From assembly GCA_041641305.1 (NCBI GenBank), contig JBEPYN010000002.1:1-64000 (forward strand): a stretch of DNA of 64,000 nucleotides. The letters run 5' to 3'. This stretch comes from Nitrososphaerota archaeon (lineage in GTDB: Archaea > Thermoproteota > Nitrososphaeria_A > Caldarchaeales > Caldarchaeaceae). Under the pieces are notes generated by a model that had not been told where the DNA came from, searched no databases, and worked only from the letters and a program-made list of their open reading frames with translations. Below are positions 50,552-56,216 of this stretch, in pieces. The number at the start of each line of letters is the position of its first letter. Position 1 is the stretch's first letter. The translations under genes were made by a program, and so were the position numbers.

Positions 50552-51577
50552 CTATTGTGCGAGAGGCTCGGGCGGTTCAGGCGGCTCCTCGAAAACCTCG
50601 GGCCATTTAACGGCGTTGTTCATGTCTCTTTCTGCAAGCTTTTTCTCTATCTGTTGGCGGAGTGGCTCGAGCCATGTGGGTAGAACAAGCCGGGAGCCGA
50701 GTGTTTCACGCGGCTCGTCGACATCGTAGCCGGGGCCCTGTGTCGCCAGCTCAAGCAGGTTTCCATCAGGGTCTCTGAAGTAAAGCGACTTGAACCAGAA
50801 CCTGTCGACGATGCCTGAGTTTCTCCAGCCAACCGAGTTAAGCCGCCTCATCACAAGCCGCTGCACCTCCTCCGATTCCGCACATAAAGCGATGTGGTGA
50901 ACAGAGCCTCGGGCCACGTATCCATCCACGTTCACGGGATCAACTATGCACCGTAGATAGACGTCACCATCCATGTCATAAACCCGCAGCATGCCAGCAG
51001 AGGCCTCAACATTCACTATGTTGAGAAACTTTTCCAGAAACCTGCTGGTCAACCCTGGGTCGGATATAATGGGCGATGCGTGGTCAAATGCTGTGAGCTT
51101 CATGATCTGTGTGATTGCCGTGGGTGTCGGTGTCTGTGTGAAGAGTTCCTTGAGATAGGCGTGGTCTGCTTCGGGGTAGGGTGTTGCCAGTTCGAGGAGG
51201 ACACCGTCGGGGTCGCGGAGATAGATGGATGCGAGGCCGCCGTAGATGTATGGGCCCTTGGCGGCGATGTTTCTCTCCCTGAGATAATGGAGCCACTTAG
51301 CCAACGCCTCTGGGGAACCGACCCTGTATGCTAAGTGATGCGGCGAGCCGTATCCGGGATAGCCACGCGGCAGCTCGGGCCACTCGAAGAAGGTGATGGC
51401 GCTTCCCGTCGGCTTGTCGAAATTGGCGTAGAAGAGGTGTCGGTGATAGATGTCGTCCTGGTTTACGGAGAGCTTGACGCGGCGGAGGCCCAGCACCTCC
51501 GTGTAGAAACGGTTGTTGACCACGTAGCTGCCGGTGACGAGCGTGATGTGATGCAGGCCTTTGACGAGGCTTTCCAC
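50552..51577 (-). CDS. Ring-cleaving dioxygenase/glyoxalase (MhqA/MhqO-like VOC)
   Basis: GLHHIT, VNQDD..HLFY, VHHIA, DRFWFKSLYFRDP. Confidence 0.92.
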   Translation of the reverse strand: MESLVKGLHHITLVTGSYVVNNRFYTEVLGLRRVKLSVNQDDIYHRHLFYANFDKPTGSAITFFEWPELPRGYPGYGSPHHLAYRVGSPEALAKWLHYLRERNIAAKGPYIYGGLASIYLRDPDGVLLELATPYPEADHAYLKELFTQTPTPTAITQIMKLTAFDHASPIISDPGLTSRFLEKFLNIVNVEASAGMLRVYDMDGDVYLRCIVDPVNVDGYVARGSVHHIALCAESEEVQRLVMRRLNSVGWRNSGIVDRFWFKSLYFRDPDGNLLELATQGPGYDVDEPRETLGSRLVLPTWLEPLRQQIEKKLAERDMNNAVKWPEVFEEPPEPPEPLAQ

Positions 51578-51603: not shown

Positions 51604-52890
51604 TTAACGTGTCTCCTTCTCCAAAGGTTGTTTAACCAGCTGGGCCTGAAGCACCGAGACGGATACCGCTGTGAGGAAAGATGGGATGGATGCGCCTATG
51701 TCGGGGGCCAGCTGCAGTATGGTGACGTAAACCATTATTCCAGCTATCCATGAGACGAAGCCGCGGACTTTGACGCCGCTCGGCTGATAGAACTCGTCGA
51801 CGGTCGGCGGGTTGTTTCTCCTGTTGATGAAGAACTCGGCTGTCATGGCTCCGAGAAGCGGCACAAACAGCGAGCCTATGAGGAGGAGGAACCATTCATA
51901 CTGCAGCAGCGGAACCGTTAGGGCGAGAAGGGCTCCCGCGGCTGTTGTGAAGGCTGCGAAAACCCACTGAGGTGTTTTGGGGAAGATGTTTTGGAAGGAG
52001 ACGGCTGAGGAGTAGATGTCGGCGAAGCCGTTGTCTGTTTCGTCGACCAAGATGAGGATGAGCGCCGCGTTGCCGAGAAAGAGTGTCCCAATCGCTGAGA
52101 TTATGTCGTCGATGCCGAGGACCGCGACCAGCCCTGCTCCGAGCAGGTAAAACCATGTGTTGGCGACCGTGTAGCCAGACAACGTGCCCGTGAAGCTCGA
52201 GGAGGGCTTGGCTGCAAACCTGTTATAGTCCGAGACAAGCGGCCACCACGACACAGGCATCGCGACCACTATGTCGAGGGCCAGCAGCAAAGGTATCGCA
52301 TCGGGCCTGCCGCCGGTGAGCCACTGACCCAATCCCGGAGAAGTGGCGACGAGATAGGTTATCCAGATGGATGACAGATAGACAAGCCAGATGGCGTATC
52401 GCTCAAGCCATTTGCGGACAACGGCAAGAGGCCCGCCCAAGGCCAGCAACAGACACCATAGGCTGAAGACAACCACCCATATCGGGAAGCTGAGCTCACC
52501 GAAGAGCCAGCCCGTCAAAACACCCGCCGCCTGAGCCATAATCATAATCTCGAAACCCGTCCAACCGATGAGCTGAACGATGTTTAGAACAGTGGGAATG
52601 TAGCTGCCGCGGAGGCCGAGGACAGGACGCAGGCTCACCATCGTCGGCACACCATACCTGCTTCCGACAACGCCAGCGGAGGCGAGCATCAGGCTCCCGA
52701 TTATCGAACCAGCGAGAGAAACAGCCAGAACCTCGAAGAAACTCAGCGAAGACAGGAAAGAACCGGCCACCATCACCAGAAGACCGACACCCAAGCTCGA
52801 CCAGAGAACAAAGTAGTCAAAAAACCGAAGAACTCTGCTGCTTTCGGGAACTGGTTCAGCGCCCCATTCAGGCGGAAGCCGTATCTTCAT
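51604..52890 (-). CDS. cytX: NCS1 transporter, CytX (hydroxymethylpyrimidine)-like
   Basis: LWSSLGVGLLV, LNIVQLIGW, AMPVSWWPLVSDYNRF. Confidence 0.82.
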   Translation of the reverse strand: MKIRLPPEWGAEPVPESSRVLRFFDYFVLWSSLGVGLLVMVAGSFLSSLSFFEVLAVSLAGSIIGSLMLASAGVVGSRYGVPTMVSLRPVLGLRGSYIPTVLNIVQLIGWTGFEIMIMAQAAGVLTGWLFGELSFPIWVVVFSLWCLLLALGGPLAVVRKWLERYAIWLVYLSSIWITYLVATSPGLGQWLTGGRPDAIPLLLALDIVVAMPVSWWPLVSDYNRFAAKPSSSFTGTLSGYTVANTWFYLLGAGLVAVLGIDDIISAIGTLFLGNAALILILVDETDNGFADIYSSAVSFQNIFPKTPQWVFAAFTTAAGALLALTVPLLQYEWFLLLIGSLFVPLLGAMTAEFFINRRNNPPTVDEFYQPSGVKVRGFVSWIAGIMVYVTILQLAPDIGASIPSFLTAVSVSVLQAQLVKQPLEKETR

Positions 52891-52937
52891 AATCCCAGCT
52901 GGGTATAGGACACAATATAAACCACTAAATAACTCAC

Positions 52938-53330
52938 TCATAACTTAGACTTCACAACCGCCAACCCCCTATCAGTCAATATATACCGGAAAGGCTTCCC
53001 CTCCCGCTTTACATACCCCCTATCGTGTAGACTCTTCAGAAGACGGGCGGTGTGCTCGCGGCTGAGGTTGAGAGCCCTGCTGACGTCACTTGACATCACT
53101 TCTCCCCGTTCATGAATAAGCCGCAAAGCAGCCAAAGCAGAGGGATGAAGCTCCTCTTCCCCATGCGCTCTTTCCTCTATTGCTGGTTGTGGTGTATCCC
53201 TCTCTTGCGTGATTTTTTGTGACCTCTGTTGAGTGATGCCGTGACGCGTCACAGCCCTCCGGTAAACATAGATAAAAATCAGCGTCTGAGCCACAAACAA
53301 AGCAGAAAAAACAAGGGTGACCGTCTCCAT
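52938..53330 (-). CDS. Membrane-anchored winged-helix DNA-binding protein
   Basis: N-terminal TM, polar linker, SSDVSRALNLSREHTARLLKSLHDRGYV.R..KPFRY.LT. Confidence 0.8.
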   Translation of the reverse strand: METVTLVFSALFVAQTLIFIYVYRRAVTRHGITQQRSQKITQERDTPQPAIEERAHGEEELHPSALAALRLIHERGEVMSSDVSRALNLSREHTARLLKSLHDRGYVKREGKPFRYILTDRGLAVVKSKL

Positions 53331-53783
53331 GTCGGCTAAACCCCCAGCTGCCCCAGGAAATCTCTGACAGTTTCCCAGTCCTTTTCCTCAAAGGCTTCGC
53401 TCAGCCGGAAAAACCACTGGTATTGTGGGAGCTTGATTAGCCCGAGGTAGCTGAGCAAAATCAGTGTGTAGAATGATTTTTGGATGTTTGTGATGGCTTG
53501 TTTGCGGGTTCTGATGTAGGAGCCTTTTGTGACGCCGCGTAGCGCGGCCCTTTGATGTGATGTCAACGTCACGCCGTCACGGTGTGATATCACGTCGAAA
53601 ATAAGGGTTTCCACCTGCTTCTGCGTGAGATGGCTTCGCTTAAGCAGCTCCTTGAAAATCGTGTCTCCGGTCATTTTCCGCATGAATTCAGCCATTTCCC
53701 GGCTTTCCGTCTTTTCCTCTTTATCCCCCATATCTGGAATACACTTTTGTAAACCGCATTATTTTTGCATCACGCAGCATCAC
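53081..53783. repeat. Cluster of GTGAYG motifs (12 hexamers, 17 GTGAY pentamers, both orientations)
   Basis: Counted by eye; several pairs are 10 bp apart. Confidence 0.7.
53336..53731 (-). CDS. Conserved archaeal hypothetical protein, putative HTH DNA binder
   Basis: LLKRSHLTQKQ, RGVTKGSYIRT..QA..NI, FYTLILL. Confidence 0.7.
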   Translation of the reverse strand: MGDKEEKTESREMAEFMRKMTGDTIFKELLKRSHLTQKQVETLIFDVISHRDGVTLTSHQRAALRGVTKGSYIRTRKQAITNIQKSFYTLILLSYLGLIKLPQYQWFFRLSEAFEEKDWETVRDFLGQLGV

Positions 53784-53861
53784 ACCCGGAACCCATACCA
53801 TAGGATTATTAAGGTAATACTGTTAAAGGGATAAATCAAGCTGGTGCGGATTTGTCATTCG

Positions 53862-54242
53862 ATGACCGTGGTTAAGAACGTGGGTGATGCGGAGGCGCGG
53901 CCTGTTGACAGAGCTAGGGACACGTTTATTCAGGTGCTTGTCGACGCCCGAGACGGCTCGGCTAACATTTTTCTCCGCAGGTTCGTGATTAAGCCAGGCG
54001 GAGAAATTCCCGCACATAGTCACCCTGACATGGAGCATGTACAGTATGTTTTGCGGGGCGAGTATGAGGTTGTTCTCGACGGTGTGGTTCATAGGGTGAA
54101 GGCTGGTGATGTCTTGTTTATTCCGGCTAAGACTGTTCATAGTTACCGGAACATGGGGAAGGAGGATGCGGAGTTTCTCTGCGTGATAAGGGGAGGGCCC
54201 TACGAGACCAAGTGGGCAGATGAAGGCGCTTCACGCTGCTGA
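53862..54242 (+). CDS. Cupin-domain protein
   Basis: PAHSHP..EH, GDVLFIPA..VHSYRN. Confidence 0.92.
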   Translation: MTVVKNVGDAEARPVDRARDTFIQVLVDARDGSANIFLRRFVIKPGGEIPAHSHPDMEHVQYVLRGEYEVVLDGVVHRVKAGDVLFIPAKTVHSYRNMGKEDAEFLCVIRGGPYETKWADEGASRC

Positions 54243-54288
54243 GCTGCTGCACTATCGTGTTCCCGCCGACATCACATAGGGTAGTCTA

Positions 54289-55188
54289 TTGTTGCGTGAG
54301 GGAGCTTATTTCATCGATGTCTACGGCGATGTTTACGCTGTCAAGGGCCTTGTTCATCCGCCGGGCCGTGTATACGCGGTTCCTCGTCTGCTTAGACGTG
54401 AGGAGATGAAAAATATCCAAAAAGCTCTACAACTCATAGCGTCTGAGAGAAGCGGTTACCTTTTCCAAGACCCATATACAGGGCGGCGGGTGATAGCTGT
54501 TCCCCGTAAAAACATCAAACAAGTCATCACACCCTCCAAAAACATCAAGGGCCCTCCGCATCTCGTCGAGACGGCGAAAAAGCTTTCAAAGGTTCTCAGC
54601 CGAGCTGGCGTAGAACATGGTTTCACGGGCTCTCTCCTCCTCGGGACAGCGGACAACGAATCCGACATCGACATAGTCATCTACGGCGGTGCAAGAGAAT
54701 ACAAGAAGCTGAAAACACTTAGGCTCAGAAACATTCTTCAACCCGTCGATGAATCCGTGCTCCATCTCCTTGCCAAAAGCCGTCTCGACACACCATTTGC
54801 CCAGCCAACCCTCGCCACGGAGCAGCGTAAAATCCTCACCGGAAAGTTTGAGCACAAGCTTTACACGATGAAGATTGTTCCAAGGGTTTTTTGGGAGAGC
54901 TGGCATACTACAAGAGTTTATCCGCAGGAGGCTCTTGAGGCTGTTGTAGAGATAACCGATGCACGCCAGGGCTTCACCACTCCTTCACGGTACCGTGTGA
55001 GACCGCTTGAAACCGAGGCTGGTTTCACGGAGATTATTAGTTTTCGGAGCAGGTTCGCGGAGATGGGCGCGAGGGGTGAGAGGCTGCGTGTCCACGGGTT
55101 GTTGGAGAAGGTGGTTAAGCCGGGGAAAATATATCACAGGCTTAACGTTGGAATAGACGCTGGAGACTATATGGCGATGGAGATTTGA
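54289..55188 (+). CDS. Predicted nucleotidyltransferase (COG1665-like)
   Basis: VKGLVHPPG, GFTGSLLLG, SDIDIVIYG, C-terminal OB-like region. Confidence 0.8.
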   Translation: MLREGAYFIDVYGDVYAVKGLVHPPGRVYAVPRLLRREEMKNIQKALQLIASERSGYLFQDPYTGRRVIAVPRKNIKQVITPSKNIKGPPHLVETAKKLSKVLSRAGVEHGFTGSLLLGTADNESDIDIVIYGGAREYKKLKTLRLRNILQPVDESVLHLLAKSRLDTPFAQPTLATEQRKILTGKFEHKLYTMKIVPRVFWESWHTTRVYPQEALEAVVEITDARQGFTTPSRYRVRPLETEAGFTEIISFRSRFAEMGARGERLRVHGLLEKVVKPGKIYHRLNVGIDAGDYMAMEI

Positions 55189-56216
55189 CTATGCTTCGCG
55201 ACTCCAAACACCTCTACCTTGACCACGACTTTGTCGAGACGGGTGATGGATGGATATTCGGCGTGGTCTCCAACACGCATCCACCTGGCCGCATCCTCGC
55301 CTACCTCAAATACATCCCGGGAGACGGTGTCTGGACACGCGACGGCATCGCCTACAAACGCGTCCTTGCAACCTATTCTATGCGTGAGGTTGTGCAGATG
55401 GTTGAGAGCGTGCGGAAGAGTAGGCCCGAGTATGTATACATGGACCCTTCGACAGGTGAAGAGTTTGTCTATGTTCCCGTGGAGCGGGTTGTGAAGCATT
55501 ACAGGTGTGAGGAGGGGCTTACACGTATTTTGGAGAGGCCGGTGAACAGGGTTGAGGCTGTTTGCGCGGAGCTTGTTAACCAGCTTTCCAGCCGCTCCGG
55601 CCTCTCCTATGGCTTTTTCGGCGTCTCAGGCTCTCTATTGCTCAGGCTCTTCAACCCCGCGGCGGACATAGACCTCGTCGTCTACGGCGGCGAAAATTTC
55701 CGCAAAGTCGTCGAAGCCTCATACAGGCTTCAGACAGAGAAGACCCTCGCCGAAAACCAGGTCATCCTCGTCAAAAACTACATGGCGAAATATCCCATAA
55801 CACAGGAGGAGGCCGAGGAGCTTGCCAAAAGATGCCGCACACGAGGTATCTTCCACGGCACATACTACTCGCTCCACGCCGTCAGAACCTTGAGAGAAAA
55901 CAAGCGAAGCTACGGCGAAGTCACCAGCAGATACATAGGAGTGGAGAAAACCATTCTCAGGATAACCGATGCGTCGGAGAGCGTGTTCACTCCCGCTGTC
56001 TACGGTGTTGAGGACCTTGGCGGTAAAAACGTTGAACAGCTCGTCTGCTACGACACAACTTTTGCGGGGCTATTCAACGAGGGCGAGGTCGTCGAGGCGC
56101 TGGGAAAGCTTGAGAAAACTGTTGACCATGTTGAGAACCGTGTCTACCGCAGCCTCGTGATAGGCACCATTAGAACAGCCGACATAGAATATGTCAAGCC
56201 TTTAAGAAGCGTTTGA
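55185..56216 (+). CDS. Predicted nucleotidyltransferase (COG1665-like), paralog
   Basis: HPPGRILAYLKY, GVSGSLLL, ADIDLVVYG, GKLEK. Confidence 0.82.
   Translation: MTMLRDSKHLYLDHDFVETGDGWIFGVVSNTHPPGRILAYLKYIPGDGVWTRDGIAYKRVLATYSMREVVQMVESVRKSRPEYVYMDPSTGEEFVYVPVERVVKHYRCEEGLTRILERPVNRVEAVCAELVNQLSSRSGLSYGFFGVSGSLLLRLFNPAADIDLVVYGGENFRKVVEASYRLQTEKTLAENQVILVKNYMAKYPITQEEAEELAKRCRTRGIFHGTYYSLHAVRTLRENKRSYGEVTSRYIGVEKTILRITDASESVFTPAVYGVEDLGGKNVEQLVCYDTTFAGLFNEGEVVEALGKLEKTVDHVENRVYRSLVIGTIRTADIEYVKPLRSV

Follow-up and report, generated by a model that had tools for sequence, protein, structure and literature searches.

What does a dense array of short repeats do inside the coding sequence of two small genes? 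The question is raised by a locus at positions 52938-53840 of a 64,000-nucleotide stretch of DNA (the window) from a Nitrososphaerota archaeon of the order Caldarchaeales, where copies of the hexamer GTGAYG (CRTCAC in the opposite orientation) run through gene B (53336..53731, minus strand; an open reading frame of 131 amino acids), gene A (52938..53330, minus strand; 130 amino acids, starting 5 nt after B), and the promoter in front of them. The window corresponds to positions 1-64000 of contig C2 in a 1.66-Mb assembly of 4 contigs, and its numbering is used for all coordinates given without a contig name. A preliminary description of this locus, made from its letters, had proposed an iteron- or parS-like nucleation site whose binders are encoded on top of it, with a membrane anchor, and had suggested a chromosome tethering or segregation system or a Cdc6-independent origin. 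The answer that we favor, with a probability of about 0.6, is that the GTGAYG cluster is the Caldarchaeum version of a conserved protein-binding repeat array that belongs to a two-gene module beside the replication origin and at least autoregulates that module.

A hexamer array inside genes A and B

The array in this genome comprises five GTGAYG hexamers read on the plus strand (at 53233, 53241, 53490, 53529, and 53557) and seven read there as CRTCAC (at 53084, 53094, 53247, 53567, 53575, 53768, and 53778), and each of the 12 matched the coordinate at which it had been reported. The palindromes TGACGTCAC (53081), TGACATCAC (53091), GTGACGCGTCAC (53241), and GTGATATCAC (53584) were likewise present in the sequence, as were three pairs described as exactly one helical turn (10 bp) apart (53081/53091, 53209/53219, and 53768/53778), although the middle pair, GTGATT/GTGACC, has only the core in common. 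The intragenic copies form one cluster in B (53490..53593; hexamers at 53490, 53529, 53557, 53567, and 53575 plus the palindrome GTGATATCAC) and two in A, namely cluster 1 (53209..53252; core sites at 53209 and 53219 and hexamers at 53233, 53241, and 53247, including GTGACGCGTCAC) and cluster 2 (53081..53099), in which TGACGTCAC and TGACATCAC make a direct repeat with a 10-bp period; none of these clusters is assigned to a strand.

The locus holds 11-12 hexamers per 700 bp, against a mean of 1.2 in the window and 0.77 in the genome, and a genome-wide sliding count across all 4 contigs found seven or more hexamers per 700 bp at this one locus only. The 5-mer core GTGAY also reached its genome maximum here, with 17-18 copies per 900 bp (mean 2.6, standard deviation 1.7), and the runner-up (C2:222.8 kb) encodes a Thr/Val-rich surface protein and is thus driven by amino-acid composition. 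When synonymous codons were resampled, either by genome usage or by permutation within each gene, the expectation was 0.7-1.2 hexamers per gene, whereas each gene has 5 (P <= 7e-4), and the hexamers occupied all three codon phases. The suspected excess therefore stands as a genome-wide outlier with amino-acid sequence controlled for, and it goes beyond what the protein sequences explain. A search of the genome for a wider regulon found hexamer pairs at fixed spacings to be almost confined to the module locus. Just one further tight cluster of hexamers exists in the genome (51534-51553; GTGACGagcGTGATGTGATG). It lies 1.5 kb from the module in a 341-aa gene (50552-51577) that looks VOC/glyoxalase-like by eye, and since it encodes HHITLVT, it is probably driven by amino acids.

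Gene A encodes an N-terminal transmembrane (TM) helix (approximately residues 4-23), a short variable linker, and a C-terminal MarR-like winged helix-turn-helix (wHTH) domain (residues 61-122) that matched Pfam HTH_27 (2.1e-8), MarR_2 and MarR (above cut-offs), and TrmB. In this genome, the linker is about 40 residues long and has no coiled coil, almost no residue is extracytoplasmic, and the basic residues that follow the TM helix place the C-terminus in the cytoplasm. The winged-helix core of MarR is present in A, and the N- and C-terminal helices that form the MarR dimer and ligand pocket were not found, only about 65 wHTH residues following the TM helix and linker. The recognition helix (SREHxxRxxK), the wing (GKPFRY), and Gln15 of the TM helix are invariant across the order, and the DNA-reading residues are also invariant when 11 long-form proteins of other classes are aligned. 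For Bathyarchaeia, long-form A was modeled as a continuous helix over residues 2-142 (the TM segment plus a coiled-coil-like rod of about 120 residues), a flexible hinge, and a wHTH at residues 164-234. Separately, the A orthologue of one Caldarchaeum genome (G001, L003:1870-2277) carries an in-frame stop, for which a pseudogene, a sequencing error, or a recoding event are possible explanations.

Profile searches of Pfam, NCBIfam, and PDB returned nothing significant for B, and in the protein atlas it matched only ‘hypothetical’ Bathyarchaeota clusters. Its AlphaFold model is all-helical (pLDDT 83), and a structure search with this model superposed residues 32-94 on helix-turn-helix (HTH) domains of the sigma-70 region 4 and LuxR-GerE type, with matches to EsrB (Z 8.1), EnfR (8hno; Z 8.0), and many extracytoplasmic function (ECF) sigma-4 domains (Z 6-7.5). 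The best archaeal structural match, EnfR of Thermococcus onnurineus (TON_1525, PDB 8hno; root-mean-square deviation 1.2 A, 25% identity over 52 residues), belongs to the Tfx/EnfR family and is a regulator whose sigma-region-4-like HTH binds a pseudo-palindrome at its target promoter (PMC10570040). Unlike that family, B has no Pfam Tfx_C or Sigma70_r4 match, and its model is helical throughout without the alpha+beta Tfx_C domain. The DNA-reading residues of B are invariant across the order, and B constitutes a new sigma-4-like HTH family. The similar gene order had prompted a reading of B and A as an ECF sigma/anti-sigma pair, which was rejected: B has no Sigma70_r2 match and its fold matches are limited to residues 32-94, A itself bears a DNA-binding head, and the RNA polymerase of archaea works without sigma factors. 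Given the wHTH of A and the HTH fold of B, both products are plausible DNA binders, and the preliminary reading of one as a TM-linker-wHTH protein and of the other as an HTH protein agrees with the Pfam matches of A and the fold matches of B. A complex prediction for B with the cytoplasmic part of A (residues 25-130) scored 0.00 and carries no weight either way.

Conservation from Caldarchaeales to other classes

Of 42 good Caldarchaeales genomes, 41 carry B, as a single copy, and almost every locus of the order has A behind it; homologues are annotated as Candidatus Caldarchaeum. The hexamers number 7-11 per 700 bp within the genus (protein identity 63-95%) and 5-8 in the family, fading in other families. 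Codon alignments showed the B sites at nt 139, 152, 160, 170, and 198 to be positionally kept across the genus, the A sites at nt 79-93 to persist in genus g1 as well as in family members whose proteins are 42-46% identical, and the A sites at nt 232 and 242 to be kept in genus and family. Around these sites, Leu, Ala, and Arg codons vary freely while CGT-GAY-GGC-GTG is fixed, and amino-acid replacements at the sites (Thr/Met and Ile/Met) keep GTGAYG. Among codon columns for conserved residues, 4 of 8 covered by the motif were invariant, compared with 11% elsewhere (permutation P 0.011). Both the comparison of genomes and the codon tests show that the units are retained at the codon level in this genus.

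Upstream of B, the array continues as the promoter pair GTGAYGCNGCGTGAYGC (53768..53783, minus strand), two GTGATG units 10 bp apart that lie directly upstream of the putative TATA box AAAAATAAT of the B-A operon (53758..53766, minus strand), a box identified by reading the sequence only. The consensus of the TATA-like box upstream of B is AAAWATA, GTGAYGCNGCGTGAYGC abuts it, and the pair is kept at the same place in genera g1 and g2. In genus g14 (loci L015-L021), a conserved TGACGTCA(C/T)GTAGCATCAA block stands about 110 nt upstream of B in place of the GTGAYG pair of g1, and it may be a shifted version of the same operator. Between the putative TATA box and the start codon of B lies a different element, the palindrome GGTTTACAAAAGTGTATTCC (53736..53755, minus strand) with the core TACA-N4-TGTA, which is probably the operator of B; the transcription start and the co-transcription of B and A are likewise predictions. 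A block, GGTTTACAAAANTGTATTCC, recurs between the TATA-like box and the start codon in Caldarchaeales loci, where the palindrome is kept almost without exception, and the latter reappears as (G)TATACAAAANTGTAT(CC) upstream of B in other classes, including loci without gene A; the ATACA-N4-TGTAT form was not seen in the two Nitrosopumilaceae loci. Its retention from Caldarchaeales to Bathyarchaeia is unusually deep for a promoter-proximal element.

Beyond the order, a profile of B matched in 176 of the 400 Thermoproteota genomes sampled, which belong to many families, and more than 2,700 homologues were recovered in the Nitrosopumilaceae search alone. Named records include Bathyarchaeia and Nitrosopumilaceae (Nitrosopumilus sp. 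K4 and Nitrosarchaeum), all annotated as ‘hypothetical’. An A-type gene follows B in 15 of 20 loci from outside Caldarchaeales and in all 35 named Bathyarchaeia loci long enough to show it. In these distant classes, counting hexamers locus by locus without bias surfaced ATCACA/CATCAC, that is, the same GTGAT core, with 8-14 copies in a B-A spacer of 200-450 bp (about 20 times the composition-based expectation) and often a second array block about 400 bp upstream of B. All 35 of the named Bathyarchaeia loci carry the array, with 4-10 copies per spacer. The consensus unit is TGTGAT(G/T)T, same-orientation neighbors peak at 7 and 10-11 bp, and inverted neighbors peak at 5 bp. In Bathyarchaeia, GTGATGTGTGATG doublets flank a TATA-like element just upstream of A, ATCACA repeats lie just past the stop codon of B, and the 13-mer doublet GTGATGTGTGATG occurs nowhere else in the three Bathyarchaeia genomes checked.

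Nitrosopumilaceae have a short spacer, and many of their units fall toward the 3' end of B and the 5' end of A, which makes them a second, independent case of an array overlapping coding DNA. The same core motif thus occupies non-homologous positions in orthologous and distantly related gene pairs, a test that the preliminary description had proposed: Bathyarchaeia carry it in the spacer, Caldarchaeum and Nitrosopumilaceae within coding sequence. The module is ancient and conserved well beyond Caldarchaeales, in Bathyarchaeia and in Nitrosopumilaceae, cultivated ones among them.

Position beside the replication origin

An orc1/cdc6 gene lies just outside the window (C2:65000-66268, minus strand), and its upstream spacer carries an inverted pair of 21-nt origin recognition box (ORB) elements (TTCCATAGGAAAACAAGGGGT; TTCCATAGGAAA..GGGGT), 149 nt apart, at C2:66392-66582 (L031:2392-2582). 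In this genome, the canonical oriC is 12.7 kb from the array. Outside Caldarchaeales, B and cdc6 are 2.5-6 kb apart in every genome for which both genes are listed on one contig; these genomes number at least 22, come from about 10 families, and include complete chromosomes of Nitrosopumilaceae and Bathyarchaeia. The distance is 2.8-6 kb in five genomes, large or complete, that represent three other families. The gene order there is a first array, B, a second array, A, a convergent third wHTH gene, about 700 bp with ORBs, and cdc6, and in 20 named Bathyarchaeia loci B, A, the third gene, and cdc6 fit inside 3 kb. Within Caldarchaeales, B and cdc6 share a contig in the approximately 25 genomes that list both, 6.6-152 kb apart, with contig fragmentation biasing which of all these distances are measurable. 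From array to ORB, the distance is 1.5-13 kb overall and 1.5-2.7 kb in Bathyarchaeia. The cdc6-upstream spacer has no GTGAT array, so the array is adjacent to the origin and is not the origin itself.

The locus had earlier been described as origin-like, and this description survives in part. A link to the replication origin exists across the phylum, but a Cdc6-independent origin is unsupported, and with a canonical ORB/cdc6 origin 12.7 kb away it is also unnecessary. No ORB was seen at the array locus on reading 52500-54300, where no pattern search was run, and GC skew, only weakly developed in this genome, pointed clearly to an origin on none of the contigs, its cumulative curve showing no turning point at 53 kb. 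No partition ATPase gene is adjacent to the module, whose neighbors here are cupin, NCS1 permease, and nucleotidyltransferase genes; in Bathyarchaeia, the neighbors are genes for a CN hydrolase, Elf1, geranylgeranylglyceryl phosphate (GGGP) synthase, a wHTH protein, and cdc6, with no ParA/ParM motor gene among them.

Two observations concern this neighborhood in its own right. The third small gene, conserved in Bathyarchaeia and Nitrosopumilaceae, where it separates A from oriC and runs divergently to cdc6 (for example, L064:3133-3603 and L045:2980-3399, both minus strand), encodes a Penicillinase_R-like wHTH protein of about 140 aa with an N-terminus like MKVEVYDESGNRY, and its homologue in the present genome (G000; C2:643303-643719, minus strand) is 590 kb from the module and 17 kb from the second cdc6 paralogue. 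In several classes (L044, L048, L060, L051, and L052), GGGP synthase (PcrB) and an Elf1-like zinc ribbon are encoded divergently upstream of B, so that the origin neighborhood keeps a recognizable gene set.

Proposed function of the array, related systems, and neighboring genes

Comparison of loci with and without A suggests which protein reads which element. Among the 20 loci from outside Caldarchaeales, the best 250-bp GTGAT count had a median of 8 where A is present (n = 15) and of 2 where it is absent (n = 5), and the loci with B but without A (L053, L055, L056/L071, and L058) have no arrays and keep the palindrome. Since the presence of A tracks the arrays and the palindrome persists without A, the GTGAT units would be assigned to A (or to A together with B) and the palindrome to B. 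The array is probably the binding site of the module's own proteins, with A favored, and the ATACA-N4-TGTAT palindrome is probably a target of B that is separate from the array.

We hypothesize that ATACA-N4-TGTAT, at the transcription start, lets B repress or tune the promoter of its own gene, a step suggested by the phylum-wide conservation of the palindrome and of the recognition helix of B. A, alone or with B, would fill a large number of (T)GTGAT(G/T) units, which occur in both orientations with spacings of 7 or 10-11 bp, and the resulting multi-site nucleoprotein complex over the promoter and gene of A would autoregulate the module; the units do stand around TATA boxes, and their occupancy is predicted. 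In most lineages, a B-A spacer of 200-450 bp and a second block upstream of B hold the units; in the Caldarchaeum genus, the spacer has shrunk to 5 nt, and selection on codon choice retains the units inside both coding sequences. With A anchored in the membrane, such occupancy would also hold origin-proximal DNA there. Cooperative occupancy by the module's own proteins, with autoregulation, appears to be the least demanding explanation, and the view that the array is more than a single operator is supported.

Several points weigh against this explanation. Half of the sites here read GTGAC and not GTGAT, so the match to the motif of other classes rests on a core of 4-5 bases, and the motif was defined after inspection, with related genomes serving as non-independent samples. 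Several Caldarchaeales families have A and only 1-2 GTGAT per 250 bp, genus g14 keeps a TGACGTCA-type element in place of GTGAT, an A-like gene without arrays occurs at L050 and L063, which belong to another family, and one locus (L057) has an array without a detectable A. The assignment of proteins to elements derives from their co-occurrence only, and at least 10 sites are far beyond the needs of ordinary autoregulation.

A rival explanation has the same binding step and differs in purpose alone; in it, the array would load many TM-anchored copies of A next to oriC as a phylum-wide origin-membrane anchor or centromere-like site that positions, sequesters, or segregates origins, with B as a dedicated sigma-4-like co-regulator and autoregulation as a by-product. 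We regard it as a serious but less probable alternative, with a probability of roughly one in three. In its favor are the 2.5-6 kb between B and the main orc1/cdc6 gene in at least 22 genomes outside Caldarchaeales, the ORB pairs that confirm oriC in the cdc6-upstream spacer, the shared contig of B and cdc6 in about 25 Caldarchaeales genomes listing both, and an array that is essentially the sole dense target in the genome. In addition, the parts of long-form A (TM segment, helix of about 120 residues, hinge, and wHTH) are those of RocS (Streptococcus pneumoniae) and RicO (of RicO-ricS, Staphylococcus aureus), which like RacA-ram (Bacillus subtilis) are bacterial origin-to-membrane anchors (bioRxiv 10.64898/2026.03.06.710092). 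Yet no partition ATPase is adjacent, the cdc6 linkage could be inherited gene order and not function, the module has survived in Caldarchaeales even where the distance has drifted to 152 kb, the sites border promoters as plain operators do, and proteolysis could free A from the membrane.

The other candidate explanations fare far worse. A replication element, either a second, Cdc6-independent origin or an accessory element controlling the firing of the neighboring oriC, would fit the proximity to oriC across the phylum, the iteron-like repeats with helical spacing, and the long non-coding spacer, as much as 1 kb, that precedes B in some Bathyarchaeia, but we consider it very improbable: the canonical inverted-ORB origin by cdc6 (at 12.7 kb here and 1.5-2.7 kb in Bathyarchaeia) has no GTGAT array, the array locus showed no ORB on reading and no long AT-rich unwinding stretch, the array here is inside coding DNA, and the cumulative (weak) skew does not turn at 53 kb. 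About as little credence is due to a constraint from mRNA structure (GUGAYG/CRUCAC pairing), antisense RNA, or an overlapping frame, for which the direct and inverted copies that could pair (e.g., a 6-bp stem at 53557-53572) and the alternative-frame open reading frames over the genes (e.g., 53110-53391, minus strand, and 53625-53834, plus strand) might speak. The hairpin partners are not co-conserved, as several genus members retain GTGAYG at B nt 160 but no longer have CATCAC at nt 170; two units precede the putative TATA box and hence fall outside the transcript; other classes carry units in the non-transcribed spacer around the promoter; and an overlapping frame would not yield a repeated hexamer in both orientations. 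Chance or composition acting on a motif picked post hoc accounts through amino acids for the 51534-51553 cluster and the 5-mer runner-up, but this explanation is effectively refuted by the single genome-wide outlier, its excess over codon-resampled controls, its retention in orthologous loci, and its recurrence in the non-coding DNA of other classes.

Comparison with known systems places the module near several of them. Like long-form A, the proteins RacA, RocS, and RicO combine a small HTH head, a coiled coil or long helix, and a membrane attachment, and their specific motifs are concentrated near the origin; the candidate sites of A lie 1.5-13 kb from oriC. Pfam gives only generic MarR, TrmB, and HTH_27 matches for A. 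The domain order of A is reversed, with an N-terminal anchor that is a true TM helix and not an amphipathic helix or a DivIVA contact; the sites of RicO and RacA span hundreds of kb, whereas here the gene of the protein itself bears one or two dense arrays; and a second HTH gene (B) is always attached, with the A of Caldarchaeum keeping the TM helix and wHTH on a short linker.

The omega repressor with its heptads in inc18 plasmids (pSM19035) and ParR-parC of R1 offer another parallel, with 7-11-bp direct and inverted units around the promoters of the binder's operon that serve as operator and centromere. The omega heptad is WATCACW, which has ATCAC in common with the unit found here, and a 7-bp period also occurs in the Bathyarchaeia arrays. 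In contrast to the ribbon-helix-helix proteins omega, ParG, and ParR, A is a winged helix and B an all-helical sigma-4-like HTH; no ParA or ParM gene is adjacent, the module is chromosomal, single-copy, and vertically inherited and not borne on a plasmid, and the units here are non-contiguous. Compared with a ParABS or type I cassette, the repeat sites at the own operon are present (arrays on and around B-A), but the adjacent Walker-type ParA gene is absent. The membrane-anchored one-component regulators ToxR, CadC, and Sulfolobus ArnR resemble A in having a tethered DNA-binding domain, which in their case acts on promoters while anchored, but they carry external sensor domains or HAMP-type modules and have regulons, whereas the only dense target of A is its own locus. 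Sequence-specific accessory DNA binding at or near archaeal origins is known from oriC ORB/Orc1-Cdc6 and from UBP-ucm of Sulfolobus (PMC12141716); the array differs from both in lying 1.5-13 kb from the ORBs, outside the origin, with a different motif and unrelated proteins, and UBP-ucm, checked as a possible relative of the module, is unrelated.

Literature and family searches found no paper or family describing the module, in line with the novelty claimed for it earlier, although RacA, RocS, and RicO are close functional analogues in bacteria. The folds, an iteron-like array with its cognate binder, and a membrane-anchored DNA binder are of known kinds. What is new is their combination, how deep it reaches phylogenetically, and its place next to an archaeal oriC. 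To our knowledge, how chromosomes are positioned and separated in archaea outside the SegAB-bearing lineages, including the globally abundant ammonia oxidizers and Bathyarchaeia, is largely unknown. The analysis turns a cluster of hexamers into a defined candidate, a single-copy pair of ‘hypothetical’ genes by oriC across classes, with a self-targeted array and a membrane anchor. If the array does anchor origins to the membrane, the module would be without a described precedent in archaea and would count as a functional counterpart of RacA, RocS, and RicO that evolved independently. Even if the module is only autoregulatory, ATACA-N4-TGTAT is among the most widely conserved single-gene archaeal cis-elements known to us, predicted binding sites are kept inside coding sequence after loss of the spacer, and a new sigma-4-like HTH family is defined.

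Around the module, a cupin gene lies divergently upstream of B, an NCS1 permease gene lies downstream, and nucleotidyltransferase genes are nearby. What had been called an AT-rich patch (53740-53840) does have 38% GC, but it is simply the ordinary 112-bp divergent promoter region between B and the cupin gene. The same divergent region contains the 7-bp palindrome GTAWTAC (53814..53820, no strand assigned), about 90 nt upstream of B and at the same distance from it in most Caldarchaeales loci. Beyond the cupin gene, two nucleotidyltransferase-like genes (54289-55188 and 55185-56216) overlap by 4 nt and look paralogous by eye, the first of them matching NTP_transf_2.

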